Shown: positions 13,965 through 53,035, numbered from the stretch's first letter. The stretch is DNA of 60,973 bases from an uncultured archaeon (GCA_964353635.1 CAYGVS010000003.1:1-60973); one strand, 5' to 3'. Notes: generated from the sequence alone by a model not told the origin. A program made the numbers and translations.

Positions 13965-16900
13965 GGTAATAGCTCTGGAATCGCTTGCGATATTCGTGTC
14001 ATACCTAGTGTTCTCCCTCACCCTGGTCTCGGCGACCAATGTCAACATAATCTTCAACAACCAGGTGCAGGGCACTGCAACATATTCCCAGGAGGACCAT
14101 GTGAACATGAAGATATCCCCGAAGCATGAGGCCTCTGACATAACATGGACCAATGTGAAGCTTACGGTCAATGTGAACAGCGCAAGCCTGGGGCATAGCA
14201 TAACGAAGATATTCCTCTACAAGTGCCTTTCCCAGACCCCGACTGAATGCGCGCGCACCACCCCGGAGGTCTTTGACAATTATATTGATACAGATCTTCT
14301 CTGGAAGGACATTTCCCAGAAGACCGGCACAAGCCAGTATCCCCAGGCAGGCAATCTGCTCTTCATTGTGAAGCTCGAGGACCAGAACGGGAAGGAGAAC
14401 TGGGTCGGGTTCTTCACCCAGACCAAGAGGATGTCATACAACACTTTCGACACCCAGCAGCTTAGCATTAACAGCATAGAGGTCTATGCTAAATCCCTTA
14501 ATCTTGTGGAGCCCATAAAAGCATACATTGAGAACAAGCTCATGATCCCATTCAAGTGGGCCACCAAAGTCGCATTCACCGACTCCACCCAGCTTTATGC
14601 AATGGGGGGAAGCGCCTCTGAGATGGACTCGCACAACCTCCAGACTGCCATCGTATCCTCATCAGAGATTGCGTCCTTAAACAAGGAGTTCTATTTTGTC
14701 TCGCCCAAGACAAGCTCAGGCATAGCGAACCCCATTCTGCTTAACCTCAACCCTTCATTCGCCTGCGGGGACAACAAATGCGAGTCAGATATAGGGGAAA
14801 GCTCTGACTCCTGCTGCCTTGACTGCGGATGCGGCATAGGGCAGTACTGTGATGTGCCGGCAGACGCCAACCTCAGCCAATGCAGGAGCGGAACGCCAGG
14901 GATTTCAGTCATCTCCGCCTCCTCCGCGCTCATATCCGACTGCTCAAGGGGCTTCACTGGCAACATCTCATTAAGGGTCAGCAACCCGCCATCCAGCATT
15001 ACTTACCCTGTGACAGGCACTGTCACGCTTAACGGCACTGTCTACAGCGTCTCCTGCTCTGGGGTTGCCGCAGCGCTTGAGTGCTCGATGCCCATCACAT
15101 CAGGTATAAAATGCGGAGAGGGCTCTTATGTCATTGGCCCAGGCCACATCAACCTCACAATAAACTACAAGGATGGCAAGGGCTCCGCAAGCAAGGCCCT
15201 GAGCACAGCCTTCTCAGGGGTTTCCGTGAGCTATGACTGCGGATGTAGTGAGGGCAACTATTGCGACACTACAAAGAAGAGCTGCCAGTCAGAGTCCGCC
15301 ATCACCCTGGGCATAACCAATCTCACATCCTACCTTGACAATTACCATTCTGGAGATAGGTTATACCTGAAGGCAAAGATATTCAACCCTCCCGAAGGCC
15401 TTGTCCTGGTTGACAAGAGCGCCACAATGAATTTGACTAATGGCCAGGTTTCCCCAGGCACGCCTGACTGCTCAGCACCGAATTCCCAGTTCGAGTACAG
15501 CTGTTCAATCCCGTTCCAGATATCAAGTTACAGCAATGAAAAGGCATATACCTTCTCACCAAATAACCTCTACTTCACAATAACTTACAATGACGGTCCT
15601 CTTGCCAAGACCAAGACCATCTCTGCGCCTTTCGGCCCGGTAAGCATACCCTCTCAGGCATGTGGGGATTCAAGCTGTAATATGGGCGAGTCGCAGTCCA
15701 CATGCTGCCTTGACTGCGGATGTGGAGACAACACAGACCTTTACTGCGATAAGGTTTCTGGATGCCAGAGCCTTAATTCCATCGGGATCTCAATAAGCTC
15801 CCTTTACCCAACCAACTTCACTGACTGTAGGGAGGCCCATGATGCGAACTTGGAGATAGCTGTCAACAATGCCCCAACCGATATGACACTTACCTACTTC
15901 ACATACATGCAGGGAGGCCTTGTCAAAGGCTGGAACCTGGCGTGCGACAAGTCCAGCGTGAACATGCTAAAATGCACCCTGGCCATCCCTGCTCTGGAAA
16001 GCGAAGGCTGCTCCCTTCCCTACAAGGTGATAGGCCCCAATTCATTAAACATAACCATCTCCTTCTACAATGGGAAGAGCAAGCAGGTGACAAAGCAGCT
16101 CTCCACCGCCTTTGGCAATATCATAATCACTCCTGTGTACCACTGTGGAGACGGGACCTGCGAATCCGATCTTGGGGAGAGCGCATCCAACTGCTGCTAC
16201 GACTGCAGCTGCGCCTCTTCCTCTTCCTTCACTAACCATTACTGCGACTACGACATGACAACCAAGCTTGGCGGCTGCATTCCGAAATCCAACATCAAGC
16301 TCATCGTAGACTCCCCCAAGGCCCCAGTCCTCTTGCAAAGCTGCGAGCTCACCAACTCGGTCAACATAAAGGCCCACATAGAGGGCCAGCCCAAGGACAT
16401 GCGGCCTCAGTCCTACTATGCTACACTTAACGGCTCTGCCACTCAATACATATCCTGCAGTCCGGAGCAGGCTTTCTACGGGGCAAACTACACCTTCAAC
16501 TGCACGCTTCTCATCCCCAGGATCAGCAGTTGTCATATAGGCAACACTTACGACTATGAGCCTAACAATTTCTCCATGCTCATAACCTTCAGCAACGCAG
16601 CCGGAGCGAACAGTGTGGAGACCCGCACCCTCACAGGCTCCATCCCTCAAATCCAAATCTACCAGAACATACGCACGCTGTATGACATCATGCAGGATGC
16701 AAGATCCAGAGCCACCCAAAGGATAATGGACCTCAAGAATGTGATAAAGGATCTTATGGATTCCATCAAGGACTGCTATGAAAAGGTAAAGATGATAATG
16801 TACATGACTTTCATCACAGCCATCTTGGTGGGTTACAAGAGTTACCAGGATACACCCGCTCCAACCAATACACCTGGTAGCACTTCCGGTTCGATTAATG

Positions 16901-18543
16901 TCTTTATGAGCGGGCAGAGAGGTAAGGTCACAGCAGCCGCCCAGGACTCTGCATTAACCCTTGCCGCAGGCTCCAGCTTCGCCCAGGCTTGGGCCAAGTT
17001 CTGCGAGTTCCTGCAGACAGAATACCAGATGGCCATCAAGTCGCTTGAAATCGAGCAGAAGCTTGACTCGATGCAAACCTGCTTCGAGGTGCAGCAGCAC
17101 GAGATGGACATAGGCCACTGCGACAAGCAGGAGCAGACATGCTTCACCAGCATGGTGAACTGCATCAACTTCAATGCGATAAGCAGCATAGCCAATGACT
17201 ACAAGACCATCGCATCAGCTGGCTCCACTGTCCTAGGCCAGATGAGCTCGGCCTTCAATCAAGGCGCTACCTATGCGGGCCAGATAGGGGGGAGTACAAT
17301 TACTGGGGCTTATGGAAGCCTTCAGGTGGCATGCAATGGAATGACATCAAGTGAATGCTGTGGAGGCTATAAAGAATCTGTACAGTCGGGTGGCACTGTG
17401 ACATATCCATGCAGATATTCATCTGTCAGATTATCCATTAGTTCGTCGGGTTCCTCCACATCTTGTCCATCATACATAATTTTAGACACTACAAAAGCTG
17501 GAACCAACATAGTTTCGAATTCACAGACAATTTCTGGCAACATGTTCCTGGACGACTGCCACACATATTCATTATATTGTGATTTAAATAGAAACGGAAT
17601 TAAAGATGGAACAGATGCTTTTGTGGGAAGCGTACAAATGACTTTCATGAAAGTCGACCTAACAACTTGCACATGTACAAAACAACCCATAGAATGCGTT
17701 TCTAGCACAGGCCTGACAGCTAACGGAGCCATAATGGGTTGCTGCAACACCAGCAAAACTGAAACGAAATGCGAAAGCGCATCGCAAGTGGCTTGCGTGG
17801 GCCCGAACCCGACGACCGTTTCTTCAATCTCGTCGATTTTCTCCCCTTCGACCAACCAAGGGATTGGTATTTTATGGGAAGGGGGTAAAGAGTGCAGCAA
17901 TAATGTTTGCGTAACGAAAACGACAACCGCGACAACTACTCCTACGGCTGCAACAGGTTGTTGTATTGGTTATTCTGACGAAGTAACAATTAAAGGATGT
18001 ACAGAAGCACTAGATAAATCTTCTTGTGAAGTGCTTGGAGGGAGCTATAAAGGCGGCAATTCGAAATGCACTGACAGTGCATACCAATCTGATTATCAAT
18101 CTATATGTAAAGGAGTGACATCAACACCGTCAATAACATCCACATCTCCAAAAGCACAAATGGATTTGACTGTAGGTGGAGTAAAGGTTACTAGCGCTAC
18201 TCAAAACTTTGCTAGTGGGCAGAAACTTAATTTTGTATGCAATGCTTTGCCATCAACATCTGGCGATAAATACATGCTGAGGCTTACTGTAAAAACTAAA
18301 CTTATAAATGCCAATGATTATGATAGTCCTCTATATGATAATAGCAAAGAGTATACTCCCAATAAAGATGCAACTCCTCAGTTGATGTATAACTATAATG
18401 ATGTTAATTTCGATTGCAATTTTGGAACGCGAATGGTGGTGGGGGATTGCTCCATATATAAGATTCCTTCTGCAACTGTTACTGCATCTACTATAGAAAA
18501 CACTGATACAAAACAACTGACGTGTGTGGGATCAAATTTCTAA
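13951..18543 (+). CDS. 1530-aa cysteine-rich surface protein (putative adhesin) co-oriented with the pilin-like operon
   Basis: Signal-like N-terminus ...LAIFVSYLVFSLTLVSA. Three copies of CGDxxC-x(4-5)-GES-x(3-4)-CC-x-DC-x-C at nt 14761-14835, 15658-15727 and 16141-16212. Internal hydrophobic helix MIMYMTFITAILVGY. The C-terminal third is Cys/Thr-rich. Confidence 0.8.
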   Translation: MMKYKVIALESLAIFVSYLVFSLTLVSATNVNIIFNNQVQGTATYSQEDHVNMKISPKHEASDITWTNVKLTVNVNSASLGHSITKIFLYKCLSQTPTECARTTPEVFDNYIDTDLLWKDISQKTGTSQYPQAGNLLFIVKLEDQNGKENWVGFFTQTKRMSYNTFDTQQLSINSIEVYAKSLNLVEPIKAYIENKLMIPFKWATKVAFTDSTQLYAMGGSASEMDSHNLQTAIVSSSEIASLNKEFYFVSPKTSSGIANPILLNLNPSFACGDNKCESDIGESSDSCCLDCGCGIGQYCDVPADANLSQCRSGTPGISVISASSALISDCSRGFTGNISLRVSNPPSSITYPVTGTVTLNGTVYSVSCSGVAAALECSMPITSGIKCGEGSYVIGPGHINLTINYKDGKGSASKALSTAFSGVSVSYDCGCSEGNYCDTTKKSCQSESAITLGITNLTSYLDNYHSGDRLYLKAKIFNPPEGLVLVDKSATMNLTNGQVSPGTPDCSAPNSQFEYSCSIPFQISSYSNEKAYTFSPNNLYFTITYNDGPLAKTKTISAPFGPVSIPSQACGDSSCNMGESQSTCCLDCGCGDNTDLYCDKVSGCQSLNSIGISISSLYPTNFTDCREAHDANLEIAVNNAPTDMTLTYFTYMQGGLVKGWNLACDKSSVNMLKCTLAIPALESEGCSLPYKVIGPNSLNITISFYNGKSKQVTKQLSTAFGNIIITPVYHCGDGTCESDLGESASNCCYDCSCASSSSFTNHYCDYDMTTKLGGCIPKSNIKLIVDSPKAPVLLQSCELTNSVNIKAHIEGQPKDMRPQSYYATLNGSATQYISCSPEQAFYGANYTFNCTLLIPRISSCHIGNTYDYEPNNFSMLITFSNAAGANSVETRTLTGSIPQIQIYQNIRTLYDIMQDARSRATQRIMDLKNVIKDLMDSIKDCYEKVKMIMYMTFITAILVGYKSYQDTPAPTNTPGSTSGSINVFMSGQRGKVTAAAQDSALTLAAGSSFAQAWAKFCEFLQTEYQMAIKSLEIEQKLDSMQTCFEVQQHEMDIGHCDKQEQTCFTSMVNCINFNAISSIANDYKTIASAGSTVLGQMSSAFNQGATYAGQIGGSTITGAYGSLQVACNGMTSSECCGGYKESVQSGGTVTYPCRYSSVRLSISSSGSSTSCPSYIILDTTKAGTNIVSNSQTISGNMFLDDCHTYSLYCDLNRNGIKDGTDAFVGSVQMTFMKVDLTTCTCTKQPIECVSSTGLTANGAIMGCCNTSKTETKCESASQVACVGPNPTTVSSISSIFSPSTNQGIGILWEGGKECSNNVCVTKTTTATTTPTAATGCCIGYSDEVTIKGCTEALDKSSCEVLGGSYKGGNSKCTDSAYQSDYQSICKGVTSTPSITSTSPKAQMDLTVGGVKVTSATQNFASGQKLNFVCNALPSTSGDKYMLRLTVKTKLINANDYDSPLYDNSKEYTPNKDATPQLMYNYNDVNFDCNFGTRMVVGDCSIYKIPSATVTASTIENTDTKQLTCVGSNF

Positions 18544-18569
18544 GGGATAAAGGTTTATGCAGACAATCA

Positions 18570-18791
18570 CAATAATTAATATATGAAATCCGTTTTGCTT
18601 GGTTTTGCCCTGGCGCTTTTGGTTGTTTCAGGAAGCGCGCAGGCGCTCAAACTCACCGACGGCCTCTACTTCACAGTGCTTCCCAACTCTACAGCTGAGG
18701 TGTATTTCATACTTCCTGATGATGTGGGTGCTGGGATGGGGAAGGCTGATTATTTCATTACCGCAACCGCTATTCCGGACTGGGACAGGGA
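18570..18791 (+). repeat. Direct repeat copy A (diverged duplicate of the 19857-20078 region)
   Basis: Hand alignment at a constant offset of 1287 nt covers 13 nt upstream of the ATG plus the first ~69 codons. Roughly 18 mismatches in 222 nt. Confidence 0.85.
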
Positions 18792-18864
18792 TATGAGCAA
18801 TTGCCCTGGCGCGCTTGCAGGCGAACTATCCAAAAAGGCCTTGCTGATTAGAATGTTACGCTAA
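18583..18864 (+). pseudogene. Truncated 5' remnant of a paralog of the 19870-21288 surface-protein gene
   Basis: The first ~69 aa (MKSVLLGF.LALL.VSGSA.ALKLTDGLYFTVLPNSTAEVYFILPDDVG.GMGKADYFIT.TAIPDWDRD) match the 472-aa gene. The reading frame then runs into unrelated sequence and stops after 24 codons. Confidence 0.7.
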
Positions 18865-18875
18865 AACGTAACATT
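18852..18875 (+). terminator. 9-bp stem hairpin at the end of the gene remnant
   Basis: aatgttacg-ctaaaa-cgtaacatt is a perfect inverted repeat. The stop codon lies in the loop and an AT-rich run follows. Function as a terminator is an inference. Confidence 0.3.
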
Positions 18876-18905
18876 TATATAGTATTTGTCACGAAGCTTT
18901 TGTTT

Positions 18906-18958
18906 TGTAAATAATTTACATTAAAGTATTTATAGGACTTCAGTGTAAATAATTTACA
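18906..18958 (+). promoter_or_regulatory. Twin palindromic operator-like sites flanking a TATA-like box, at the HEPN gene start
   Basis: tgtaaatNatttaca occurs exactly twice (18906-18920 and 18944-18958). tatttata lies between them. The second palindrome abuts or overlaps the ATG at 18958. Confidence 0.45.
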
Positions 18959-19308
18959 TGACCATACAAGATGGCTTGAAAAGCGGAATTATTGAGTTCG
19001 AGCAGTCTGCAAGGGAAGAGGAGGCCAAAGGAAGGAATAGGGCTGCGGCCACCCTGTATTTCAAGGCCATTGCCACAGTATGCGATTATGTGATATATCA
19101 AAAGCTCAGGAAGATCCCGGACAACCATGCGGAGAGGTTCAGGATACTTGAAAGCCATTTCATCCTGCTTTATCGGGTGATAGACAGCATTTTCTCAACC
19201 TACCTGCAGACATACCGTTCCGGCATAAGCCAGGAGCAGATGGAGATGATGAAAGATGCTTTCAGAAAGGCTAAAAAGCTTGCAGAGTCTGTCGAGAAAT
19301 GTCTGTAA
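18958..19308 (+). CDS. HEPN-domain-like protein (putative toxin partner of the downstream nucleotidyltransferase)
   Basis: All-helical 116 aa. AATLYFKAIATVCDYVIYQKLRKIPDNHAERFRILESH resembles the HEPN helix-H motif (R-x6-H present). It is paired with a minimal NTase gene. Confidence 0.55.
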   Translation: MTIQDGLKSGIIEFEQSAREEEAKGRNRAAATLYFKAIATVCDYVIYQKLRKIPDNHAERFRILESHFILLYRVIDSIFSTYLQTYRSGISQEQMEMMKDAFRKAKKLAESVEKCL

Positions 19309-19804
19309 AGCCGAGAAGTCTGTGTTTGATGTGGTGCTTTTCGGCTCCTCCATAAAGGAAAAGTACAGGCCGGGGGACATTGACATATGCATAATATTCA
19401 GGCAGGAGATGGAAGAGCGTAAGAGAGAAAGGATAGCGGAAGTTTTTAAAGGATGCCATGTGGAGCATCTTTTCCTTCATGAATTGTACAAGGAGCCATT
19501 ATGGCAGACGCTCATCCATGAAGGGTTTAGCTTGGTGAAAAACAAGTTTGTCCACGAAATCTTCGGATTCGATTCACAGATTATTTTCAGATACGATTTG
19601 AAAAAACTAGACTCTGTAAAGAAATCAATGTTTTCCCATGCATTGGTTGGGAGGGATGGAGAAGGAGGGGTACTCAGGCAAACAAAAGGCATTGTCCTGG
19701 GAAAAGGATGTGTCATGATTCCTGCGGAGGCTTCAGAAAAAATAAGGGAGTTCCTTGAGACGTGGGGAGTGGAGTACTCTGTTATGAAGGCTTTAGTATC
19801 ATGA
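19256..19804 (+). CDS. Minimal nucleotidyltransferase (Pol-beta superfamily, MNT-like)
   Basis: LFGSSIKEKYRPGDIDICIIF is the hG[GS]-x(9-13)-DhD NTase signature. The start is uncertain: the ATG at 19256 overlaps HEPN by 53 nt, and a GTG at 19322 is the alternative. Confidence 0.7.
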   Translation: MLSERLKSLQSLSRNVCKAEKSVFDVVLFGSSIKEKYRPGDIDICIIFRQEMEERKRERIAEVFKGCHVEHLFLHELYKEPLWQTLIHEGFSLVKNKFVHEIFGFDSQIIFRYDLKKLDSVKKSMFSHALVGRDGEGGVLRQTKGIVLGKGCVMIPAEASEKIREFLETWGVEYSVMKALVS

Positions 19805-19856
19805 TTAATTCTTGGGTATTATTGATTATTTTCTTAAAGATATAACAAGTCTACTG

Positions 19857-20078
19857 CAATAATTAATATATGAAATCCGTTTTGCTTGGTTTTACCCTGG
19901 CGCTTTTCTTTGTTTCAGGGAGCGCACATGCGCTCAAGCTCACCGACGGCCTCTACTTCACAGTGCTGCCCAACTCTACTGCTGAGGTGTATTTCATACT
20001 TCCCGATGATGTGGGTACTGGGATGGGGAAGGCTGACTATTTTATCACCACAACCGCTATCCCGGATTGGGACAGGGA
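19857..20078 (+). repeat. Direct repeat copy B (start of the intact surface-protein gene)
   Basis: See copy A at 18570-18791. Confidence 0.85.
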
Positions 20079-21288
20079 CCTTACCCAGAGGACTATATCC
20101 ACGGACATTAACAACACTGCAATAATACCCATAAGGTTCTTCACAGTAGGCAAGTCTGAGGGGGAGTGCTCCAATTATAGTGTGGCCATACAGGCGCCAA
20201 GCCTGGGCTTGTCCAGGTCATGGAAAGGCGGGATATGCGTTTCTAAGTACATGGATGTGGACATTGTTACAGGCCCTGTATCAGGCCCTAAGGAGGCCCT
20301 GAACCAGAATGTGGACCTGTTCAGCCTGGGTTTCAGGACAGCCTCCAAGGCAGTCAAGCCTGGCGAGAACTTTTCACTTGAGCTTCTAGTCCAGTCCCAG
20401 GCAAGCCTCACAATAGATGTAAGTGTGGCTTCTGATGTCCAGCTGGCGCAGAAGAGCTTCATGCTGCAGACAGGCAAGGTCTCTGGAGCCAGCACGCTCA
20501 TGCTGGAAGGCACAGCAGGGGCAGCTGGAACCTACCAGATAAGGGCGACTGCGAAAGCCAGGAGCTGCACGCTTAGTTCATGCACAAAGCAAGCATCCAT
20601 GACCCTTGATGTTTCTGATTCAGGCCCGAAGAGCGGTTATTCTGTCTCAATATTCCCTGAGAACCTTGCAATTAAGAGCCTTGCGCCTGTGATTTATTCC
20701 TTTATAATCCAGAACAATTACCAAGCAGAGGCAAGCTTCGTGACCAGGGTGGAGAAGCCCTATGACTTAGACAGCTCCTTCGTGATAGATACTTTTGCAA
20801 TCCCGGCGCTCTCTGAGAAGACAGTGAATTTCACAGTCACGCCAAGGAACCAGACAGGATTCTATGAGATAAAGGTCATTGTGAACGCCAATGATATGGA
20901 GAAGGTTGCCTCAGCCTATCTGTCCACTAACGAGATGGTTTCCGATGTCTACAGGAGCGCTGATGAGGTCCGCTCCCAGGCCAGCACTGCTGTGAAGGCA
21001 GAGGTGGACAGCAAGGTGAAGACGTGGTACAGCTCCTACACCAAGTCAGAATACGGCTCCAACATGACAGCTTATGCAAGCCTTCAGAAGGACCTGGAAT
21101 CGGAAAAAGGGCAGTCAAATCAGACAGAAATCCCTGAGAACGAAACTGGGGAGGAGCCTGCTCCGGCCAGCCCTCTTGGGATGATAGTTATACCTGTTAT
21201 CATTGGTGTGGCTGTCCTTTTCGTTCTGCTATTCATGAGAAAGAGGCAAGGCAAAGAAGGAGACAGCCTGGACAGCATAAAGTTCTGA
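19870..21288 (+). CDS. Secreted surface protein with C-terminal TM anchor (472 aa)
   Basis: Signal peptide MKSVLLGFTLALFFVSGSAHA. The beta-rich body carries sequons. C-terminal helix GMIVIPVIIGVAVLFVLLF followed by MRKRQGKE. Confidence 0.8.
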   Translation: MKSVLLGFTLALFFVSGSAHALKLTDGLYFTVLPNSTAEVYFILPDDVGTGMGKADYFITTTAIPDWDRDLTQRTISTDINNTAIIPIRFFTVGKSEGECSNYSVAIQAPSLGLSRSWKGGICVSKYMDVDIVTGPVSGPKEALNQNVDLFSLGFRTASKAVKPGENFSLELLVQSQASLTIDVSVASDVQLAQKSFMLQTGKVSGASTLMLEGTAGAAGTYQIRATAKARSCTLSSCTKQASMTLDVSDSGPKSGYSVSIFPENLAIKSLAPVIYSFIIQNNYQAEASFVTRVEKPYDLDSSFVIDTFAIPALSEKTVNFTVTPRNQTGFYEIKVIVNANDMEKVASAYLSTNEMVSDVYRSADEVRSQASTAVKAEVDSKVKTWYSSYTKSEYGSNMTAYASLQKDLESEKGQSNQTEIPENETGEEPAPASPLGMIVIPVIIGVAVLFVLLFMRKRQGKEGDSLDSIKF

Positions 21289-32963: not shown

Positions 32964-33532
32964 TCCCTCTGCCTCTCCATCCTTGGCACGAATATCCTGT
33001 ACCTGTCCTTGTCGTTCATCTCCTCGACTATCCTTTTGACTATCATCTTCTCCGGGTCAGGGAGGAGCGGAACCCTCTTCTTAAGCTCGGTGAAGTTCTC
33101 GAATGGTTTGACCTTCCTTTCGTCTATTATCGCCCAGAGGTGGCGCTTGCCAATCCCATGCAGCAGCTCCAGTTGGTGCATTCTCGTCGTGAGCTGGCCT
33201 GATTTGTTGAAGAATTCCAGGAACTTCTGTGGGTTCTCATCGACTATCTTCTCAACCGCAGGCTGGACCTCGTCTTTTGCTGCGTTGGTGAGCTCCTTGA
33301 ACTCAAGCCTTCCCCGTATGTATTTCACCTTGTCCCTCTTTCCGTCGCCAATGTATATCCTTTCGCCTATCTTGAGCGCAGTGCCTTCCCTTATTATGAC
33401 CTCAAGCAGCGAGAAGAACATATCTCCCATAACCTGCGCGACAGGCTGCGATCTGTCCATACCGTAATGGCCGTGTGACAGGTATTCCAGGCAAACGGCC
33501 CATTCGTCCTTCTTTATATCGTGGGGAACCAT
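32960..33532 (-). CDS. DUF655/COG1491-type predicted nucleic-acid-binding protein (OB fold + HhH)
   Basis: VCLEYLSHG...FSLLEV....L.IGERIYIG...KV..I.GRLEFKELT..A..E....VEKIV.ENP.KFLEFFNK....T.R.HQLELLHGIGKR follows the conserved archaeal pattern. It sits in the conserved L21e-RpoF-DUF655 neighbourhood. Confidence 0.7.
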   Translation of the reverse strand: MVPHDIKKDEWAVCLEYLSHGHYGMDRSQPVAQVMGDMFFSLLEVIIREGTALKIGERIYIGDGKRDKVKYIRGRLEFKELTNAAKDEVQPAVEKIVDENPQKFLEFFNKSGQLTTRMHQLELLHGIGKRHLWAIIDERKVKPFENFTELKKRVPLLPDPEKMIVKRIVEEMNDKDRYRIFVPRMERQRE

Positions 33533-33599
33533 GAACTCACCATTTAGATTTTGAGCTAATCGTGTGATTTTAATAAAATTGGTTTTCAGTTTTAAATTG

Positions 33600-33926
33600 T
33601 TAGCTGAACTTCTTCACGATAGAGACTATCTTCTTCCTGTCTTCCTCCGAAAGGCTGATTATCTCGTTCGAGAAGAGCGTCCTCACTTCATCCGGGTCCT
33701 GTGGCATGTGGTTTATTATCGAGATTATCTGCCTCTCCTTGAGCCTCTCTATCTTCCCGAGCTCCTCGGCCAGCTCGGCAGCGGACTTCTCGGATATCTT
33801 GGAGAACTTCCTGAGGTGGTCCAGAGCATTTTTCTGCTCGTAGCTGAGCTCCTTCTCTTTCTCCTTCTTCTCGAGGATCTTCCTCACCTCAGACCAAGAA
33901 ACGAACTTCTCGTTTTCAACTTTCAT
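33600..33926 (-). CDS. rpoF: DNA-directed RNA polymerase subunit Rpo4/F
   Basis: ~108 aa, with the SWSEVRKILEKKEKEKELSYEQKNALDHLRKFSK...ELAEEL pattern of Rpb4/RpoF. Adjacent to rpl21e. Confidence 0.8.
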   Translation of the reverse strand: MKVENEKFVSWSEVRKILEKKEKEKELSYEQKNALDHLRKFSKISEKSAAELAEELGKIERLKERQIISIINHMPQDPDEVRTLFSNEIISLSEEDRKKIVSIVKKFS

Positions 33927-33963
33927 GCTCTTTCCTCACGGCTTGCCAGAAACTGAACAAATA

Positions 33964-34251
33964 TTAACTAACAGGCTTTAAATGCTCGGGCTTCAGCATG
34001 AGCGTCTTTTGCTTGTTGCCAAGCATTATGCTCACGACATAAGCCCTTCCGCGCTTCTTCAGGACCTTGCCGACCTTGCCCTTGTACCTGTAATGAGGCA
34101 TGTTCTTGGGGGAAGAAGGGTCGATGTCGATGAGCACTTTCTGGTTGCTATGGAACTCCCTGAGGAACCTCTCCACAGTGAATTTCTCGCCGTGCGGCTT
34201 CTTTAGCTTCCTTCTTGTTCCCGTCCTGAAACCTCTTCCCGATCTTGACAT
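33964..34251 (-). CDS. rpl21e: 50S ribosomal protein L21e
   Basis: MSRSGRGFRTGTRRKL...IDIDPSS..NMPHYRYKGKVGKV...GRAYVV matches the L21e signature. Confidence 0.9.
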   Translation of the reverse strand: MSRSGRGFRTGTRRKLKKPHGEKFTVERFLREFHSNQKVLIDIDPSSPKNMPHYRYKGKVGKVLKKRGRAYVVSIMLGNKQKTLMLKPEHLKPVS

Positions 34252-34339
34252 AACTCACACCGTGACAATTATACCTGGTTAATTGTATGCTTGCTATTTA
34301 AATTCTTGCTTGAGTCTGAAAGTGCCTTGGCATCTTCTA

Positions 34340-35557
34340 TTACTTGTTCCCTGGAAGATGTATTTTGACCACGTCAAGCTCCTCTACTTTGAGAGGGATT
34401 TCCAAAACGGATGAGAAGGAAGGCCTTGTCCTTCCGCTGTCCCCGTTTATGAGCTCCTTGATGTAAAGGCCTGCCGATCCCTTTATGGTGAACTCTATCC
34501 TGTTCTTTGGCATGAGCTTCCAGGAAACCGACTTCATGCGCTTTACCCTTGTCTTGTCAGCCCTCCTGTGCATGACCCTGGCTGGCGTCTGCTGGTTTAT
34601 CAGGGAAAGCTTCCTGAGTTTTGGAAGAAGCTCCCTGGGTATTGGTTTCTCAGAAGAGGCAATAGCCCTGTAGGTCTTGTCAGGCATGAGGCTCTTGACC
34701 TTCACGACCTCCTTCCTGTCAGAATACCGCATGCCGGAAACAGCCACCTTTTTTGTGCGGCCTATTTCAGCCTCCATCTTGGCAAGCTGGAAGGCGCGCT
34801 TCTTTGGTGATTCTATTTCCAGGACGAAAGGCCTCCATGCAAGGCACCTGGCATCAATGTCCTCCCTCCCCGAGGCATGCAGCGAGTGCCCGCTTCCGCC
34901 TGATTCCCTCATGAAAGGCTTGGCGATTATGTCTTCTACTGTCTCCTTGTACATCTCCCATTTGGTTTGGGGAATCCCTCTCACAAGCTTCCGGTATCTC
35001 CCATAGACGTAGACCGGGTTAATCTGCAACCTCAGCGCATTCTTCTCCAGGTCAAGGATGAACGCCACATCAGGATTGCTTTCGTCCGGTTCCTTTCCGG
35101 TCTTTGCGGCTATCAGCTTGCCCAGCTCCCTGTTTATCTCTGATTTTATAGGCTCGCAGTTCTCAATCCCGATCTCCTCCCACAGCTCCTCTTCCTTGTG
35201 TACAAGCGAGCTGCTTAGCTTTGTGGAGACCACGAATGTCCTGCACTCTATCCTTGCTAATTTCTTTCCAGCCTGGCTGGCCCATTTCCCCAGCTCATCG
35301 AAGAGGCTGCCGCATATGCTGCATGGCTCGTGCTTCTCCTGGATGGGGATTTTTTTCTTCCTGAAGTCAAGTCCGGAGAAGTTGGCCTTGTCTGTGGGGA
35401 AGGGCTTCATGGAGTATTCCATAGCCAGAATAATCCGTAGGGAGCGGCCCCTCTCCCTGTTAGTGAACCCAGAGAGTATCTGCGCGAACTGCCTTCCCAT
35501 GCAGTTGTCGCACACGTAGCCTTTCTGCAGGATTTCCTTCGCGGTTTCGAGGATCAT
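34340..35557 (-). CDS. pus10: tRNA pseudouridine synthase Pus10 (full length)
   Basis: Zn ribbon CDNCMGRQF...CSICGSLF, THUMP-like middle, catalytic GREDIDARCLAWRPF, and a complete C-terminal lobe. Confidence 0.85.
   Translation of the reverse strand: MILETAKEILQKGYVCDNCMGRQFAQILSGFTNRERGRSLRIILAMEYSMKPFPTDKANFSGLDFRKKKIPIQEKHEPCSICGSLFDELGKWASQAGKKLARIECRTFVVSTKLSSSLVHKEEELWEEIGIENCEPIKSEINRELGKLIAAKTGKEPDESNPDVAFILDLEKNALRLQINPVYVYGRYRKLVRGIPQTKWEMYKETVEDIIAKPFMRESGGSGHSLHASGREDIDARCLAWRPFVLEIESPKKRAFQLAKMEAEIGRTKKVAVSGMRYSDRKEVVKVKSLMPDKTYRAIASSEKPIPRELLPKLRKLSLINQQTPARVMHRRADKTRVKRMKSVSWKLMPKNRIEFTIKGSAGLYIKELINGDSGRTRPSFSSVLEIPLKVEELDVVKIHLPGNK
34691..35089. repeat. 399-bp near-identical tract shared with 36209-36607
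   Basis: Hand alignment at offset 1518 gives 3 mismatches in 399 nt. Identity drops clearly on the 5'-coding side and vanishes on the 3'-coding side. Confidence 0.9.
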
Positions 35558-35593
35558 GGGTATAGTTTGCCTGGTGGGAATATAAATTAAGAA

Positions 35594-37108
35594 TTAGCCT
35601 ATCTTGTATCCTAATAGTTTTAGCCTTTCAGTATATTTCCCAATCTTTTCGCTTTTCTTTCTTGGGTCCAAAAGCGGATCTTCTTTTGCTATCTTGATGG
35701 CCTTATGAAAATCTCCGATGATATCATAAACTGGCCTGAGGCGTGCTTCAAAGCCGTTGATTTTCATTGTCGTGTTGTTTTCCCAATTACTGCTCAGAGC
35801 ATGAGATATTGCGCCTGGATCCATCAAGTCGAATTTAACGCTGCCAAGATTAAACTTGAGATGATCAAGAAATTCGGCCGATATGCTTTCCAATTTGTTT
35901 GGTATTCCCAAGCTATTAAGGGTTTTCGCGATTGCATGTGCGTAAGCTTCTTTTCCTGCGACAATTATGTCTATGTCAGAGGACTCTAAAAGCGCATCTT
36001 GAAGAACCAGGCTTGCTCCGCCGAATACTATGAAATCAGAAGACCTAGGTATGTATTTAGTTTTGGTCTCATATATTCTTGGCTCCGGAATTATTCCATG
36101 TTTTCCCATCATTTGATAGAAACTTATGAGGGCATCAGACAGAATTTCCTTTTTCATGAGGCTTTTGTTTGTGTTTAGATATTTAACCTCGTTGAGGGAA
36201 AACGAAGAGCTCTTGACCTTCACGACCTCCATCCTGTCAGAATACCGCATGCCGGAAACAGCCACTTTTTTTGTGCGGCCTATTTCAGCCTCCATCTTGG
36301 CAAGCTGGAAGCCGCGCTTCTTTGGTGATTCTATTTCCAGGACGAAAGGCCTCCATGCAAGGCACCTGGCATCAATGTCCTCCCTCCCCGAGGCATGCAG
36401 CGAGTGCCCGCTTCCGCCTGATTCCCTCATGAAAGGCTTGGCGATTATGTCTTCTACTGTCTCCTTGTACATCTCCCATTTGGTTTGGGGAATCCCTCTC
36501 ACAAGCTTCCGGTATCTCCCATAGACGTAGACCGGGTTAATCTGCAACCTCAGCGCATTCTTCTCCAGGTCAAGGATGAACGCCACATCAGGATTGCTTT
36601 CGTCCGGCTCCTTTCCAGTCTTCTCAGCAATCAGCTTGCCCAGCTCCCTGTTCACCTCTGATTTAATGGGCTCGCAGTGCTCTATACCTATGTCCTCCCA
36701 CAGGGATTCCTCATTCTGGACAAGCGCCCTGCTAAGCATTGTGGACACCACGAAGGTCCTGCATTCGATTCCAGCCAGCTTCTTTTCCGCCTGGCCGGCC
36801 CACTTATCAAGGTTTTCAAAGAGGCCGCTGCAGGTTTTACAAGGCTCATGTCTATCCGGCATTTGGATTTTTTTTCTGAAGTTCAGGCCTGAGAAATTCG
36901 CCTTATCTATCGGGAAAGGCTTTATGGAGTACTCCATGGCCAGAGCAATCCGTATGGAGCAGCCCCTTTCCCTGTTCGTGAATCCAGAAAGGAGCTGAGC
37001 GAACTGACGGCCCAGGCAATTATCGCAGACGTATCCTTTCTGGAGGATTTCCTTGGAGGTATCGAGAACCATGGGTATAATTTCAATCGCAAGAATAAAA
37101 ACTATCAT
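35594..37108 (-). CDS. Chimeric protein: Pus10 N-terminal ~300 aa fused to a Pol-beta-type nucleotidyltransferase-like C-terminal domain
   Basis: The N-terminal part parallels Pus10 up to ...MRYSDRMEVVKVKS. It then continues as an unrelated ~205 aa with FGGASLVLQDALLESSDIDIIV (hGG-x13-DhD). The ATG at 37108 overlaps the upstream stop (ATGA). An alternative ATG at 37072 (MVLDTSKEIL) aligns with the Pus10 start. Confidence 0.75.
   Translation of the reverse strand: MIVFILAIEIIPMVLDTSKEILQKGYVCDNCLGRQFAQLLSGFTNRERGCSIRIALAMEYSIKPFPIDKANFSGLNFRKKIQMPDRHEPCKTCSGLFENLDKWAGQAEKKLAGIECRTFVVSTMLSRALVQNEESLWEDIGIEHCEPIKSEVNRELGKLIAEKTGKEPDESNPDVAFILDLEKNALRLQINPVYVYGRYRKLVRGIPQTKWEMYKETVEDIIAKPFMRESGGSGHSLHASGREDIDARCLAWRPFVLEIESPKKRGFQLAKMEAEIGRTKKVAVSGMRYSDRMEVVKVKSSSFSLNEVKYLNTNKSLMKKEILSDALISFYQMMGKHGIIPEPRIYETKTKYIPRSSDFIVFGGASLVLQDALLESSDIDIIVAGKEAYAHAIAKTLNSLGIPNKLESISAEFLDHLKFNLGSVKFDLMDPGAISHALSSNWENNTTMKINGFEARLRPVYDIIGDFHKAIKIAKEDPLLDPRKKSEKIGKYTERLKLLGYKIG
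36209..36607. repeat. 399-bp near-identical tract shared with 34691-35089
   Basis: See 34691-35089. The lower boundary (36209) coincides with the fusion junction. Confidence 0.9.
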
Positions 37109-38478
37109 TCTGCCAAAGGCCGCTGCTCTTGCTCTGAGGACGCGCTATCATTCTTGCTTTCCTCCTGCGGCACCACTATGCTCACCTTTTTCCCGCTGCT
37201 CTTGAAGATTATGTCCTCGAGCTCCTGCTTCTGTCTCTCCATCTCCTTCCTTATGCTCTCCTTGTCCTGGGCAGAGGCATTGAGCACTTTCTCCAGGGAG
37301 GCAATCTCGTCAAGGTTCCTCCTTATGCTGTTCTCGAGGTGGGCCTTCCGTTCAATGGCCCATTCATACCTGCTTCTTTCCCTTTCAAGCACCTTGGTTT
37401 CCTCAACTTTTTCATTGTAGTCGTACTTCAGGCTTCTTACGTCTGTATCCAGCCTGGAGGCAAGATCGTCTATCTTCTGCTTTTCGCTGTCCTTAAGGCT
37501 CACCTTCTCTTCCATTGCCGCCTTCCTTGTAATAAGCAACACCTCCCTGATTTGCTTCTCTTCACATTTCATGATGGCCTCGAAAGGCCTGTTTATCATG
37601 CTTTCCAGCGCAATCTCCTGCTCCTTCAGGATAGGATAGTTCTTGCTGACAAGGTACTCAAGCTTCTTGAGGGGCCTCTGGACAGAGGAAATCTCATCTG
37701 TTATGTGGTCCTTGAGAGCACTAATGGCTCTTCTGTTCTTCTCTAACTGCTCTCCTATGCTGTTGTATTCGGCGTATTCATGCCCCTTGACTATGCTGTC
37801 TATCTCAGCCAGGTGCTTCTCAGTCTTGTTCCTGAGGTCCTTTATGCGCATCTGTATCCCGCCTTCCTCCTTTTCCACGGTGCTCAGCCTCATCTTCAGG
37901 ATGGACTGTTGGTCCTTCTTGGACTTTATGCTGTGGGCCAGCTGTATGGTCTCCCCTTCAGCTTCCAAGAACTCCTTGAGGATAGAGACGTTCTCCTGCG
38001 TTTCCTTTATCCTCTCGATGACTGCGGAGCTATCCTTGCTGAAATAAGTCGAAAGAAGATATGCCTGCTTTGGCGTGATGCTGCTCATGTCAGCCAGCGC
38101 TTCCTCTGCAGCTTCCATGAACTGCTTGAGTATGTTGAAGTCGACTGGCTTGCCATTGAAATCCTGGATACCGCTGACAAGCGTGTGAATTCTTTTGACA
38201 AAAAGCTCCTTGGTCATGTTCACGACAGGCCCCAGCTTGTCAGGGCTCTCGAATTTCGCTGACTCCAGGATGTCTGCGGATTCCTTGATTCTCTGGAATC
38301 CCTTCATTATCCCTGAGTACAGCTCGTTGGCCCTCTCATGCTTGTCCTTGATCTTGCCTGCAAGCGTCTGGTTGACCCAGTCGCTGACCTCGTCTATGTG
38401 CACCTCTGTCTTCTCCGGCGCTTGCTCCGGGGCTTGCTCCTGCTCCTTTTTCTTCTTGAAAATATCGAATATCCCCAT
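37105..38478 (-). CDS. Coiled-coil protein, 457 aa, function unknown
   Basis: Long uninterrupted ORF. Heptad-rich K/E sequence. N-terminus MGIFDIFKKKK followed by an acidic linker. No catalytic motif recognised. Confidence 0.6.
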   Translation of the reverse strand: MGIFDIFKKKKEQEQAPEQAPEKTEVHIDEVSDWVNQTLAGKIKDKHERANELYSGIMKGFQRIKESADILESAKFESPDKLGPVVNMTKELFVKRIHTLVSGIQDFNGKPVDFNILKQFMEAAEEALADMSSITPKQAYLLSTYFSKDSSAVIERIKETQENVSILKEFLEAEGETIQLAHSIKSKKDQQSILKMRLSTVEKEEGGIQMRIKDLRNKTEKHLAEIDSIVKGHEYAEYNSIGEQLEKNRRAISALKDHITDEISSVQRPLKKLEYLVSKNYPILKEQEIALESMINRPFEAIMKCEEKQIREVLLITRKAAMEEKVSLKDSEKQKIDDLASRLDTDVRSLKYDYNEKVEETKVLERERSRYEWAIERKAHLENSIRRNLDEIASLEKVLNASAQDKESIRKEMERQKQELEDIIFKSSGKKVSIVVPQEESKNDSASSEQEQRPLAE

Positions 38479-50763: not shown

Positions 50764-50877
50764 ATTTATATTCCTCACTCTTAGAAATGCATTATGAAAG
50801 CGATAATAGCGAACCCGCCCTGGATGTACAAGGAAGACAGGGTTGTTCCTCCGCCAATTTTTCATATGCATGTACAG
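50764..50877 (+). repeat. Duplicated promoter-plus-5'-coding segment (copy at the methyltransferase gene)
   Basis: atttatatt(c/t)ctcact...attATGAAAGC(g/a)ATAATAGCGAA(c/t)CCGCCCTGGATGTACAAGG is shared with 51582-51740. This copy lacks 45 nt present in the other. Confidence 0.75.
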
Positions 50878-51558
50878 GATAAGTCTGCTGAAAAAAAGTT
50901 CTTCGATTCCAGAGAGGAATGGAACGTGTTCTCCGAATGGAGATACAGCTCGCTTGTTGATTACTGGCTCAAGGAATCAGGAATCCGTTCGGGGGAATTG
51001 CTTGATCTGGGTTGTGGGAGCGGCATTTTCGGCCACTACTTCAAGAAGAAGGGCTTTCGAGTAGTCGGCTTGGATGTCTCTTCTTCCTTGGTTAAAGTCG
51101 CTGCAAAAAGGCTTGATTCGGCTGTTGTGGGAGATGCTGAAAACACCCCTTTCGAGGAAAGCCGATTTGATGGGGTAATCGCAGGAGGACTGCTTCACCA
51201 CTTTCCTTCAAAACAGAATCTGGTAAAAGAAATGAACCGCGTGCTCAAGAGAAAAGGCTTTTTGTTCACACAAGACCCTAACATGCTCAACCCGAAGATA
51301 ATGGTTTCCCAAGCCGCTTTCTCCCCATTTCGGTCGGGAGTTACAGAGAACGAATGCCCCATCACGCCTGAGGAACTGGTTAGGTCAATAAATCCCTTCT
51401 TCCAAACAGTCTCTCTAAAATTTTTCTCATTCATCCCGCCCCAAACGAGGTTGGGTGATAGAGCGGCTTCTGCTTATCTTAAAATGGAGTCTCTTCTGCA
51501 GAGAACGCCGCTCAAATATCTCGGAGCCGATTTGGTAAGCGTTTCCTCAAAGCGTTGA
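50794..51558 (+). CDS. Class I SAM-dependent methyltransferase with a borrowed radical-SAM-type N-terminus
   Basis: LDLGCGSGIFGHYF...VVGLDVS...GDAENTPFEESRFDGVI is the Methyltransf_11-like core. The first ~26 aa, MKAIIANPPWMYK...DRVVPPPIFHM, duplicate the start of the next gene. Confidence 0.8.
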   Translation: MKAIIANPPWMYKEDRVVPPPIFHMHVQDKSAEKKFFDSREEWNVFSEWRYSSLVDYWLKESGIRSGELLDLGCGSGIFGHYFKKKGFRVVGLDVSSSLVKVAAKRLDSAVVGDAENTPFEESRFDGVIAGGLLHHFPSKQNLVKEMNRVLKRKGFLFTQDPNMLNPKIMVSQAAFSPFRSGVTENECPITPEELVRSINPFFQTVSLKFFSFIPPQTRLGDRAASAYLKMESLLQRTPLKYLGADLVSVSSKR

Positions 51559-51581: not shown

Positions 51582-51740
51582 ATTTATATTTCTCACTTCT
51601 AGAATAAGAAGGTATTATGAAAGCAATAATAGCGAATCCGCCCTGGATGTACAAGGGGTACTACGGAGTAAGGGCGACCAGCAGGTGGCCTCACCTGAGG
51701 AAAGACAGGGTGATACCTCCTCCGATATTCCACATGTACG
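51582..51740 (+). repeat. Duplicated promoter-plus-5'-coding segment (copy at the radical SAM gene)
   Basis: See 50764-50877. Confidence 0.75.
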
Positions 51741-53035
51741 CTGCCGCCGTCCTCGAGCAGAACGGGATACAGGTAAAAGGGATAGACGCCGTGCAGAAGG
51801 AGATGACCATAGAGGAATTCGTCCAGGAGGTCAAGGCAGGCAATCCGGACTACCTGTTCATGGAAACCGCGTACACTTCCTACAATTTCGACAAGCTGAC
51901 CATCGAAGCGCTGAGAAAGGAAACGCCTGCAAAGATAGTGATATTCGGGCCGCATTCCACCGCCATAGGCGAGCAACTGATGATGGAGAACCCGAATATA
52001 GATATGGCGGTCAAAGGAGAGTATGATTACACACTATCCGAGATAATGCAGAACCAGAGCAATCCTGAGAAGGTAAAGGGGATAGCGTTCAGGGACGGCG
52101 GCAGGATAGTGACGACGGAGCCTAGGCCGCTCATCACTGACATCGATTCACTTCCCATGCCGGCAAGGCATCTCTACGAGATACACGGCTACGAGGAGCC
52201 TATGTACAGGAGGCCGAATTTCCTTATATCTACCAGCAGGGGATGCCCGTACGGATGCTCGTTCTGCGTCTGGCCTGCGACAATCCACGGGAACATGTTC
52301 AGGTTCAGGAGCGCCAAGAACGTGGTGGATGAGATAGAACTCTTGGTTGAACGGTACGGAGCCAAGAGCATAAACATCGATGATGACACATTCACCGTCA
52401 GGAAGGACAGGGTGATAGAGATATGCGACGAGATTCTGAGACGGAAGCTGGACATAACATGGTATTGCTATTCCAGGACGAACATAGACGACATCGAGCT
52501 TTACGAGAAGATGGCCATGTCTGGCTGCGAAATCGTCAGGTTCGGTGTGGAATCCTCAAGCAACAGTGCCCTGAAGAACGTCGAGAAGAAACTGACAGTC
52601 GAGCAGATAAGGAAAGGCTTCCACATAGCTGAAAGGGCAGGGATAAAGACCATGGGGACGTTCACATTCGGCCTTCCAGGAGAGACGAAGGACGACATCC
52701 TGAACACGATCGAGCTATCAAAGAAGCTAAATCCGTTCGTCGTCCAATATTCTTTCATAGTCCCGTTTCCCGGGACAAAGCTTTATGATCAGGGGAAGGC
52801 GAACGGCTGGTTCAGGGATGAAGACATAGACGGGTTCTCAGGAAGCGTGATGCCGGTGCTTGTGCCCGAAGGCATGACGAGGGAGGAGCTTTCCTCGACC
52901 GTGAGCGGCGCCTATAAGAGCTTCTATCTGAGGCCCTCTTACATGATCAAGGCGCTGGGCATGTCCAGCGACATGCACGATTTAATGAGGCTCGCCAGAG
53001 GCTTCAATTCAATTGTAAAAAGGTTCGGGATCTGA
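51617..53035 (+). CDS. B12-binding-domain radical SAM enzyme (class B)
   Basis: N-terminal B12-like domain (IIANPPW...PPPIFHMYAAAVLEQNGIQV..ID), then SRGCPYGCSFCVW (CxxxCxxC). Confidence 0.85.
   Translation: MKAIIANPPWMYKGYYGVRATSRWPHLRKDRVIPPPIFHMYAAAVLEQNGIQVKGIDAVQKEMTIEEFVQEVKAGNPDYLFMETAYTSYNFDKLTIEALRKETPAKIVIFGPHSTAIGEQLMMENPNIDMAVKGEYDYTLSEIMQNQSNPEKVKGIAFRDGGRIVTTEPRPLITDIDSLPMPARHLYEIHGYEEPMYRRPNFLISTSRGCPYGCSFCVWPATIHGNMFRFRSAKNVVDEIELLVERYGAKSINIDDDTFTVRKDRVIEICDEILRRKLDITWYCYSRTNIDDIELYEKMAMSGCEIVRFGVESSSNSALKNVEKKLTVEQIRKGFHIAERAGIKTMGTFTFGLPGETKDDILNTIELSKKLNPFVVQYSFIVPFPGTKLYDQGKANGWFRDEDIDGFSGSVMPVLVPEGMTREELSSTVSGAYKSFYLRPSYMIKALGMSSDMHDLMRLARGFNSIVKRFGI

Follow-up and report, generated by a model that had tools for sequence, protein, structure and literature searches.

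Introduction

Archaeal Pus10 (TIGR01213; human PUS10, PDB 2V9K), the tRNA pseudouridine 54/55 synthase, combines a Zn ribbon and a THUMP domain with a series of conserved elements, namely GREDxD, Tyr, His-Arg, Ile-Lys and Leu. In MjPus10 the catalytic core is formed by Asp275, Tyr339, Ile412, Lys413 and Leu440, while His376/Arg377 reside in the thumb loop (Joardar et al., PMC3753934). On the minus strand of a 60,973-nucleotide contig from an uncultured archaeon (GCA_964353635.1, CAYGVS010000003.1:1-60973; this whole stretch is hereafter termed the window), pus10 sequence occurs twice in succession. An open reading frame (ORF) of 504 codons, ORF B (35594..37108), in which about 300 Pus10 residues are followed by 204 unrelated residues with the signature of a nucleotidyltransferase (NTase), precedes gene A (34340..35557), which encodes an intact Pus10 of 405 amino acids. 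A preliminary description had regarded the pair as paralogues and ORF B as an NTase joined to a tRNA-docking module, created or maintained by gene conversion or duplication. The comparisons presented here favour another reading, to which a probability of roughly 0.7 is assigned: the locus appears to be a recent, strain-variable rearrangement of the one pus10 gene in a member of the Aenigmatarchaeota (DPANN) and not an evolved fusion enzyme.

With regard to the NTase, the nearest described proteins are those of the TM1012/DUF6036 type and toxins of the MenT/AbiEii type, the latter of which nucleotidylate the 3' ends of tRNAs (PMC10435456, PMC7450476). [quoted passage not shown] The present locus shares with the former process one homologous end, provided by the 5' part of pus10, and one abrupt non-homologous joint, and it shares with insertion-duplication the placement of foreign DNA between direct duplicates of target sequence next to an intact target gene. 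However, both processes were described in bacteria, whereas the host here is a DPANN archaeon for which the route has to be reconstructed from the end product and for which no donor was found in the searches described below.

A further parallel is provided by the icd gene of Escherichia coli, into which the prophage-like elements e14 and phage 21 integrate, bringing a replacement gene end with them. A diverged replacement part and an intact gene beside a displaced fragment are common to both situations, but in the window it is the 5' end together with the promoter, not the 3' end, that was replaced, and the insert measures about 1.1 kb. This extra DNA encodes the NTase and a pus10 5' fragment only; it contains no integrase and no att-type border repeats, its only flanking repeat being a 399-nucleotide tract of the gene itself. 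Moreover, no tRNA genes or Rfam families at gathering threshold were detected in the whole 61-kb contig, and in the absence of a tRNA gene an integration site of that kind is ruled out.

A single pus10 gene in relatives and in a nearly identical strain

Fourteen related loci were obtained from GTDB genomes, all of which are metagenome-assembled genomes (MAGs) of Aenigmatarchaeota (DPANN) with 48-74% amino acid identity. At each of them one and the same gene is matched by gene A and by the Pus10 portion of ORF B, and the C-terminal segment of ORF B has no counterpart at any of the 14. Together with two loci from metagenomes (L021, L022), they display the order coiled-coil gene, one pus10, L21e and RpoF, which in the closest relatives (L001, L002, L014) extends to porA (in opposite orientation), coiled-coil gene, one pus10, L21e, RpoF and DUF655. 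Since all relatives carry one pus10, the single copy is considered the ancestral state.

The most informative comparison emerged from a metagenome scan with the 5' part of ORF B, which yielded contig L020 (JGI Ga0315277_10118245, 2970 nucleotides). Positions 1-1629 of L020 correspond to 37837..36209 of the window with five mismatches, three of which are diagnostic sites of the 399-nucleotide tract, and positions 1231-2970 correspond to 35089..33350 with two mismatches; outside the extra DNA, the two sequences are separated by three single-nucleotide polymorphisms in 2970 nucleotides. The pus10 gene of this 99.9%-identical strain is single and intact, encodes 404 amino acids and equals the 5' part of ORF B followed by the tract and the 3' part of gene A. 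Relative to L020, the window holds 1518 extra nucleotides, comprising 1119 new ones (36208..35090) and the 399 of a second tract copy. The new DNA consists of the NTase leader and gene, a spacer of 36 nucleotides and a 468-nucleotide pus10 5' part that is 22% diverged, position 35090 being the last mismatch to the L020 pus10 before the tract. Conservation of the fusion in related genomes is not borne out: it is absent from the 16 related loci and from L020. Likewise, the 504-residue protein is a singleton in a collection of 15 billion proteins, where it occurs on one contig of 60973 nucleotides only.

Parts of the insert-bearing arrangement recur in other samples. In the Logan contigs L030 (ERR4334728) and L032 (ERR3804373), which come from two further samples, the 3' end of the NTase and the 36-nucleotide spacer precede a gene A whose protein is identical to that of the window. 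Both contigs are identical to the window save for position 35021 and begin within the NTase or directly behind it, and a further contig, L031, starts inside the tract (34921). In addition, a 15-kb ENA contig (L028, k141_4837512) carries the A-type 5' part from 35326 onward, after a head of 143 nucleotides. This head (1-143 of L028) is GC-rich and unrelated to the window, and probably represents a chimeric contig end at a strain-variable region.

The duplicated tract and the non-homologous joint

The two tract copies, 34691..35089 in gene A (tract R) and 36209..36607 in ORF B (tract R'), differ at exactly three of 399 positions in a DNA alignment, namely 34794/36312 (C/G), 34748/36266 (G/A) and 34713/36231 (A/T; gene A base first in each case). 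The 468 nucleotides that precede the tracts share about 78% identity, corresponding to 77% at the amino acid level, with a dS of 1.25 and a dN/dS of 0.10. Similarity between the copies ends abruptly at 36209|36208, after ...GTCAAGAGC. Hence, the near-identity of the tracts, the divergence of the 5' parts and the coincidence of one tract edge with the fusion junction, all noted in the preliminary description, are upheld. To judge from this alignment, the tracts stem from recent duplication or conversion of a native pus10 segment.

L020 carries the gene A base at all three diagnostic sites, so the differences are private to R'. These substitutions (36231, 36266, 36312) all lie within 104 nucleotides of the joint, a clustering with p ~0.02 under a uniform distribution, and since they are missing from the copy in gene A and from L020, R' is a separate physical copy that continues into the NTase leader. 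Two of the three are non-synonymous, one of them converting the Lys of the conserved DRKEVV into Met, and the cluster fits relaxed constraint or error-prone repair at the joint.

Two side observations concern exchange between the copies. Position 35021/36539 is T in both copies of the window and C in L020, L028, L030 and L032, and L031 is a mosaic with both gene A and ORF B bases at the diagnostic sites. Taken together, the shared T and the mosaic point to ongoing conversion between the copies or, alternatively, to a collapse of the repeat in short-read assembly.

A 9-mer, AGCCTCATG, spans the break point in the native pus10 (34684-34692; Ser289-Leu290-Met291 of gene A; AAG AGC|CTC ATG) and recurs at the start of the NTase (36155-36163; AAA AGC CTC ATG). 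It may be the trace of a microhomology-mediated step; as the recombination joint itself it was rejected, the actual joint being 48 nucleotides away. The NTase leader has no further copy in the window or in the loci compared.

Gene A and the truncated Pus10 of ORF B

The TIGR01213 equivalog profile spans gene A from end to end (profile positions 1-402) with 415.4 bits against a cutoff of 200, which bears out its earlier description as a complete Pus10, and Pfam assigns Pus10_THUMP_arc and Pus10_C. The protein retains GREDID (230-235), Tyr296, His330/Arg331, Ile366/Lys367 and Leu394; by motif, spacing and alignment to human PUS10 (2V9K), the MjPus10 core corresponds to Asp233, Tyr296, Ile366/Lys367 and Leu394, and the thumb loop to His330/Arg331. 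The Zn ribbon and the position before L21e, RpoF and DUF655, typical of the clade, are likewise those of archaeal Pus10. Gene A differs from its relatives in being, on the evidence of the alignments, a mosaic of two origins: codons 1-156 (35090..35557, the 468 nucleotides missing in L020) are of the divergent type, 22% diverged from the native 5' part, and the remainder is of the native type. Gene A is most likely a working Pus10 that supplies the tRNA pseudouridine 54/55 synthase activity.

ORF B, on the contrary, covers only positions 2-291 of the 402 of TIGR01213 and 1-119 of the 232 of Pus10_C before it switches to the unrelated segment, as had been noted. Its native 5' part (36608..37072, counted from Met13) equals that of L020 and comprises the Cys pairs of the Zn ribbon and the THUMP domain (Pus10_THUMP_arc). 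The last Pus10-like residue is Ser300, equivalent to Ser289 of gene A, seven residues before the conserved Tyr. Of the catalytic core, four of five residues are thereby lost along with the thumb loop, the equivalents of MjPus10 Tyr339, His376/Arg377, Ile412/Lys413 and Leu440 being dropped and the Asp loop (GREDID) alone being kept. It is therefore unlikely, to judge from the alignment, that ORF B provides an active, folded Pus10 half-domain.

The first ATG of ORF B (37108) overlaps the stop codon of the gene for a 457-residue coiled-coil protein (37105..38478, minus strand) in the sequence ATGA, on account of which a three-gene unit had been suggested. The overlap is real, but the unit is not supported: ATG 37108 sits upstream of a conserved promoter box and is not used by the relatives, in all of which the start Met is the equivalent of ORF B Met13 (37072). 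Since, in addition, homology between the copies extends about 32 nucleotides 5' of the gene A ATG, ATG 37108 is probably not the start. The native promoter spacer (37073..37104) thus falls within a 12-codon N-terminal extension, and counted from Met13 the product would comprise 492 amino acids, that is Pus10 up to Ser300, a 17-residue translated leader and the NTase. The pus10 remnant reads into the NTase as a 504-residue ORF because the 51-nucleotide leader (36158..36208) is free of in-frame stops. ORF B is thus probably an incidental read-through chimera of a displaced pus10 fragment into the NTase.

The nucleotidyltransferase and its family

Residues 318-504 of ORF B correspond to a gene of 187 codons (35594..36157) that, to judge from its homologues, stands alone. 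The C-terminal segment contains the motif FGGASLVLQDALLESSDIDIIV, and in the numbering of the 187-residue protein the key residues are Gly46-Gly47, Asp61, Asp63, Asp110, Arg141-Pro142, Asp149 and Lys174. The Pol-beta motif hG[GS]-x9-13-Dh[DE]h is represented by F45-G46-G47...D61-I-D63, with G46, D61 and D63 invariant in eight sequences. A third carboxylate, D110, is D or E in six of the seven aligned members (Ser in P0006; P0008 lies outside this column check), and F102, R141-P142, D149 and K174 are further family invariants. The NTase signature noted earlier is thereby substantiated in the form hGG-x13-DxD, and a downstream acidic residue is present in addition.

A word-indexed search with the C-terminal 204 residues gave no match. 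An exhaustive HMMER search of 1.84 billion representatives returned the window protein and six homologues of 169-193 amino acids, and a profile search added one member, giving a family of eight sequences, all archaeal; no further relatives were found in a metagenome scan. In the HMMER search residues 1-3 of the homologue align to ORF B Met318 in four of six cases, and in the multiple alignment every homologue begins at this residue (MKKEILSD...), M1 being an invariant column. In all six homologues checked, an in-frame stop lies 3-9 codons upstream of the ATG. Hence, every homologue begins as a gene of its own at the residue equivalent to the internal Met of ORF B (36157), and the NTase is most likely expressed separately as a predicted 187-residue protein.

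The homologues are found near ordinary archaeal genes, namely those for MCM, diadenylate cyclase, class-I LysRS, Spt4, GatC and RIO kinase, and their neighbourhoods (L015-L019, L023-L027) contain no pus10, conserved partner, antitoxin or HEPN gene. In the window the NTase gene is flanked by pus10 pieces alone, with no HEPN neighbour of the sort that defines a HEPN-MNT pair. The contig of homologue P0008 (L015) encodes, at 12545-15284, two NTP_transf_2/Polbeta genes, each followed by an ORF of about 145 residues (likely pairs of the MNT/HEPN type), as well as an MmeI-like type IIL restriction-modification enzyme; this region resembles a defence island, but none of these genes adjoins P0008.

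As to family assignment, Pfam DUF6036 (PF19502) matches seven of the eight members at E<=0.01, all below the gathering cutoff of 23.6, with 19.7 bits for the window protein and 22.6 bits for the best member. The family profile matches the putative NTase TM1012 of Thermotoga (PDB 2fcl, 2ewr, 4hx0) at E 5e-4. Like TM1012/DUF6036 proteins, the members are about 170-190 residues long and have an N-terminal helix before hGG-x13-DxD, with an acidic residue further on; they differ in their sub-cutoff Pfam scores, in forming a tiny archaeal group and in their own invariant R-P, D and K. PADLOC, PHROGs and NCBIfam provided no family for the NTase, a viral fold library gave weak NTase-like matches only, and a literature search for DUF6036 retrieved no papers.

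An AlphaFold model based on the eight-sequence alignment is of low confidence (predicted local distance difference test score, pLDDT, 56.5; predicted template modelling score, pTM, 0.47), and a single-sequence model (pLDDT 40) was unusable. In a Foldseek search with the low-confidence model, the matches are NTases with few exceptions, and the first 13 PDB matches are all NTases with template modelling (TM) scores of 0.3-0.44, including MenT1, TM1012, ANT(2'')-Ia, poly(A) polymerases and TUTases, and the top match is MenT1 (8an5_B) at TM ~0.37. The identification as an NTase is supported by the motif, by the TM1012 match and by the sub-threshold DUF6036 matches, and this model may point to an NTase fold. 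The small single domain and the top Foldseek match are shared with MenT/AbiEii (DUF1814) toxins. On the other hand, none of the eight members matches DUF1814 at E<=1, MenT1 is not among the PDB sequence matches at E<=10, PADLOC gives no match and no antitoxin is adjacent. Given the low confidence of the model (pLDDT 56, TM ~0.37), the specific resemblance to MenT1 is weak. Taken together, the segment is a predicted minimal Pol-beta-type NTase of a rare TM1012/DUF6036-like archaeal family.

Promoter-like boxes and base composition

In archaeal promoters the TATA box is located roughly 25 nucleotides upstream of the transcription start site. At the present locus an octamer that begins with TT and consists entirely of A and T lies exactly 21 nucleotides before three ATGs: TTTATATT (35579-35586) before that of gene A (35557), within the 36-nucleotide spacer (35558..35593) that separates it from the NTase stop codon (35594-35596); TTAAATAT (36179-36186) before that of the NTase (36157), within the leader; and TTTTTATT (37094-37101) before ORF B Met13 (37072), within the native promoter spacer. 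Such a box at 20-22 nucleotides precedes 18 of 2383 ATGs in the window (both strands), and at least ten of the others so preceded are the first ATG of a long ORF. The same geometry, with TTTATATT 21 or 23 nucleotides before the ATG, is found upstream of pus10 in L001, L014 and L002, and TTAAAT boxes stand 20-22 nucleotides before the NTase homologues in L015, L017, L019 and L026. Box-to-ATG spacing and the usual position of the archaeal TATA box together indicate leaderless transcripts, and judged by this pattern the three ATGs, including the NTase start at 36157, probably have leaderless promoters. Boxes 20-22 nucleotides before first ATGs are common in the contig, suggesting that first genes are mostly leaderless.

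The composition of the NTase segment sets it apart from its surroundings. Its GC content is 0.40 compared with 0.51-0.54 on both flanks, and its GC content at third codon positions (GC3), 0.399, is lower than in any other of 45 contig genes (mean 0.599, standard deviation 0.083; neighbours 0.64-0.72). This foreign composition suggests that the gene was most likely acquired horizontally.

A proposed history of the locus

In the proposed history, about 1.1 kb of extra DNA (36208..35090) would have entered pus10, comprising the low-GC NTase gene together with a TATA box of its own, as well as the promoter and initial 156 codons of a divergent pus10, and the insertion would have been accompanied by a 399-bp duplicate of native sequence. 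The upstream remnant would then be the displaced native promoter with pus10 codons 1-~288 (ORF B residues 13-300), one tract edge representing an illegitimate joint and the other the end point of a homologous crossover or conversion. The A-type 5' part and the NTase may have been imported from an unsampled sister lineage, with a homologous crossover near codon 156 and an illegitimate joint at codon ~289 (gene A numbering). As an alternative route, a circular intermediate could have integrated by insertion-duplication with gap repair off the chromosome. Either route, which we infer from the end product, would duplicate native sequence and leave the target gene intact.

The origin of the two 5' parts is constrained by their divergence. 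Derived changes amount to 10 on the A lineage and 16 on the B lineage, and these similar counts, together with a dS of 1.25 and a dN/dS of 0.10, exclude a decaying pseudogene that diverged in place. The pattern fits orthologues that diverged in separate lineages. Direct repeats of 399 bp at a distance of 1.1 kb are expected to be unstable over long times. Import from a sister lineage is favoured because of this expected instability, the foreign GC3 of the NTase and the lack of a two-copy relative among the 16 loci.

Several observations weigh against this reading. The insert-bearing haplotype occurs in at least three other samples and the insert-free one in a single sample, and L020 could be a pop-out revertant instead of the ancestor. 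Sequences sought as possible donors of the A-type 5' part came no nearer than 76% across 43% of the query, and no donor lineage with an A-type 5' part or with an NTase beside pus10 was found. The two 5' parts are sister sequences (neighbour-joining, NJ, bootstrap 96%) with similar branch lengths, a tree that does not tell a foreign sister-lineage donor from an in-situ paralogue. The joint at 36209|36208 is found in this contig only, which constitutes the whole NCBI record, and the promoters were assigned from pattern alone. Finally, the 504-codon ORF B is intact and the native promoter upstream is kept, so that a fusion protein of 492 amino acids is probably made at some level by a transcript running from the native promoter into the NTase.

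Alternative explanations

The alternative that survives best, unlikely as it is, is an old in-situ tandem duplication of pus10, in which the tract underwent partial concerted evolution, the NTase subsequently cut the upstream copy short and L020 arose as a pop-out recombinant between the tracts. It accords with the 5' parts of A and B being each other's closest relatives (77% amino acid identity; NJ 96%), with conversion between copies (T at 35021/36539; the L031 mosaic), with the greater number of insert-bearing samples and with an L020 tract that is compatible with a crossover in its first 295 nucleotides. However, two copies are found in none of the 16 relatives, and this explanation would require purifying selection on both copies over a dS of ~1.25, as well as persistence of the low GC3 of the NTase or its later arrival, in spite of repeats that should not have lasted. 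In any event, the fusion ORF is a by-product under the import from a sister lineage and under an old in-situ duplicate alike.

A functional fusion, in which the Zn ribbon and THUMP domain of Pus10 dock tRNA for the fused NTase in a regulatory or toxin-like role and conversion with the paralogue maintains the gene, is distinctly improbable. The frame is indeed open over 504 codons with Zn-ribbon cysteines and THUMP retained, the catalytic motifs of the NTase and the upstream native promoter are intact, and the 5' part shows a dN/dS of 0.10 without rate acceleration relative to gene A; yet the low dN/dS is equally explained if the B 5' part was the native orthologue until very recently, and R' has three private changes, two of which are non-synonymous, with a conserved Lys replaced in one case. 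Likewise, the best Foldseek match of the low-confidence model is a toxin that acts as an NTase on the tRNA acceptor end (MenT1; PMC10435456), but no DUF1814/MenT signal is found at the sequence level. Moreover, the NTase homologues all stand alone with stops just upstream of the ATG and never adjoin pus10, a promoter-like box precedes the internal Met, the linker is a translated leader, and the composition of the NTase is foreign. In addition, the Pus10 part is cut within the catalytic domain before the conserved Tyr, leaving a half-domain that should not fold, and the protein is a singleton missing from relatives and from the 99.9%-identical strain. Of the preliminary proposal, recent duplication or conversion is retained, in agreement with the T present in both copies, whereas the maintained tRNA-docking unit is not supported in view of the stand-alone homologues, the truncation and L020, and neither is the idea of a tRNA-directed NTase.

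Least probable is an assembly artefact, in which the sequences of two strains occurring together would have been linked via the tract they share, so that no molecule would carry a truncated pus10 beside the NTase. In its favour are the origin of the contig from a MAG, an exact repeat of 295 nucleotides, which exceeds usual k-mers, the breaks of other assemblies in or near the repeat (L028 head at 35326, L031 at 34921, L030, L032) and the fact that the joint 36209|36208 is known from this contig only. Against it, there is no shared sequence at that joint through which a graph assembler could connect, R' has private substitutions close to the joint, the joint between NTase and gene A was assembled independently in two other samples, and even a chimera needs some truncated pus10 tract preceding the NTase.

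Neighbouring genes and recurrence of the layout

The order on the minus strand of the window is coiled-coil gene, ORF B, gene A, L21e, RpoF/Rpo4, DUF655 and CBS protein. The coiled-coil gene, which lies outside the rearrangement, adjoins pus10 upstream across Aenigmatarchaeota at identities down to 22%: in tblastn searches it immediately precedes the lone pus10 gene in L001, L002 and L014 (66-68% identity) and likewise in L006, L007, L011 and L012 (22-29%). The 457-residue protein has no Pfam, NCBIfam or PADLOC family match. Large Cys-rich proteins of the surface type are encoded elsewhere in the contig at 2071-8226 (2051 amino acids) and 13951-18543 (1530 amino acids).

Two further loci in the contig display a comparable layout, consisting of an upstream copy of a promoter and 5' end, an inserted gene and the intact gene. 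At the first, 18548-18791 and 19835-20078 share 244 nucleotides at ~90% identity, the upstream copy covering the truncated first ~70 codons of a gene for a secreted-type protein of 472 amino acids. It is followed by an ORF of 116 codons (18958-19308; no Pfam match), an overlapping minimal NTase of the NTP_transf_2/Polbeta type (182 amino acids, 19256-19804) and then the intact 472-codon gene (19870-21288). The region 18548-20078 looks like a cassette of the HEPN/MNT type that was inserted with duplication of the target 5' end. At the second, 50786-50833 and 51609-51656 share 48 nucleotides at 92% identity; here a class-I methyltransferase of 254 amino acids (50794-51558, GC3 0.51) shares its TATA box, its leader and its initial 13 codons (MKAIIANPPWMYK) with the next gene, which encodes a B12-binding radical SAM protein (51617-53035, GC3 0.71). 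At both loci the inserted genes have a lower GC3 than their targets.

This recurrence speaks for gene gain by a general recombination route and not for selection of a Pus10-NTase protein. It is tempting, if rather doubtful, to suppose that in this DPANN lineage small accessory genes such as this NTase, the MNT-type cassette (18.5-20.1 kb) and the methyltransferase (50.8-51.6 kb) move from one related genome to another as hitch-hiking cassettes without an integrase, each bringing along a host gene's promoter and 5' end and integrating into that gene by homologous recombination (insertion-duplication). If so, the target gene would stay intact, the truncated copy could read into the cargo, and raw fusion ORFs like Pus10(1-300)-NTase would be generated continually.

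Implications

With respect to novelty, the locus offers a new member of a minimal NTase family and a structural variant generated by recombination, both of known kinds. What looks like a domain fusion in a MAG can be the outcome of insertion and duplication, when a housekeeping gene that was cut short continues in frame into a horizontally acquired gene with a promoter of its own, and continuity of an ORF alone is insufficient for inferring function. Should the fusion, against the odds, be active on tRNA, it would constitute a natural case of a tRNA-docking module that retargets an NTase.

For the family, the analysis documents a very rare group of archaeal stand-alone minimal NTases, and for the host it reveals a presence/absence polymorphism at strain level inside a conserved archaeal gene cluster related to translation. 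The main value of the locus lies in the clean example that it sets, resolved at the population level, and in its caution for annotation. Its most interesting lead is the recurrence of the cassette layout, which may reflect gene gain without dedicated integrases in the reduced genomes of DPANN archaea.

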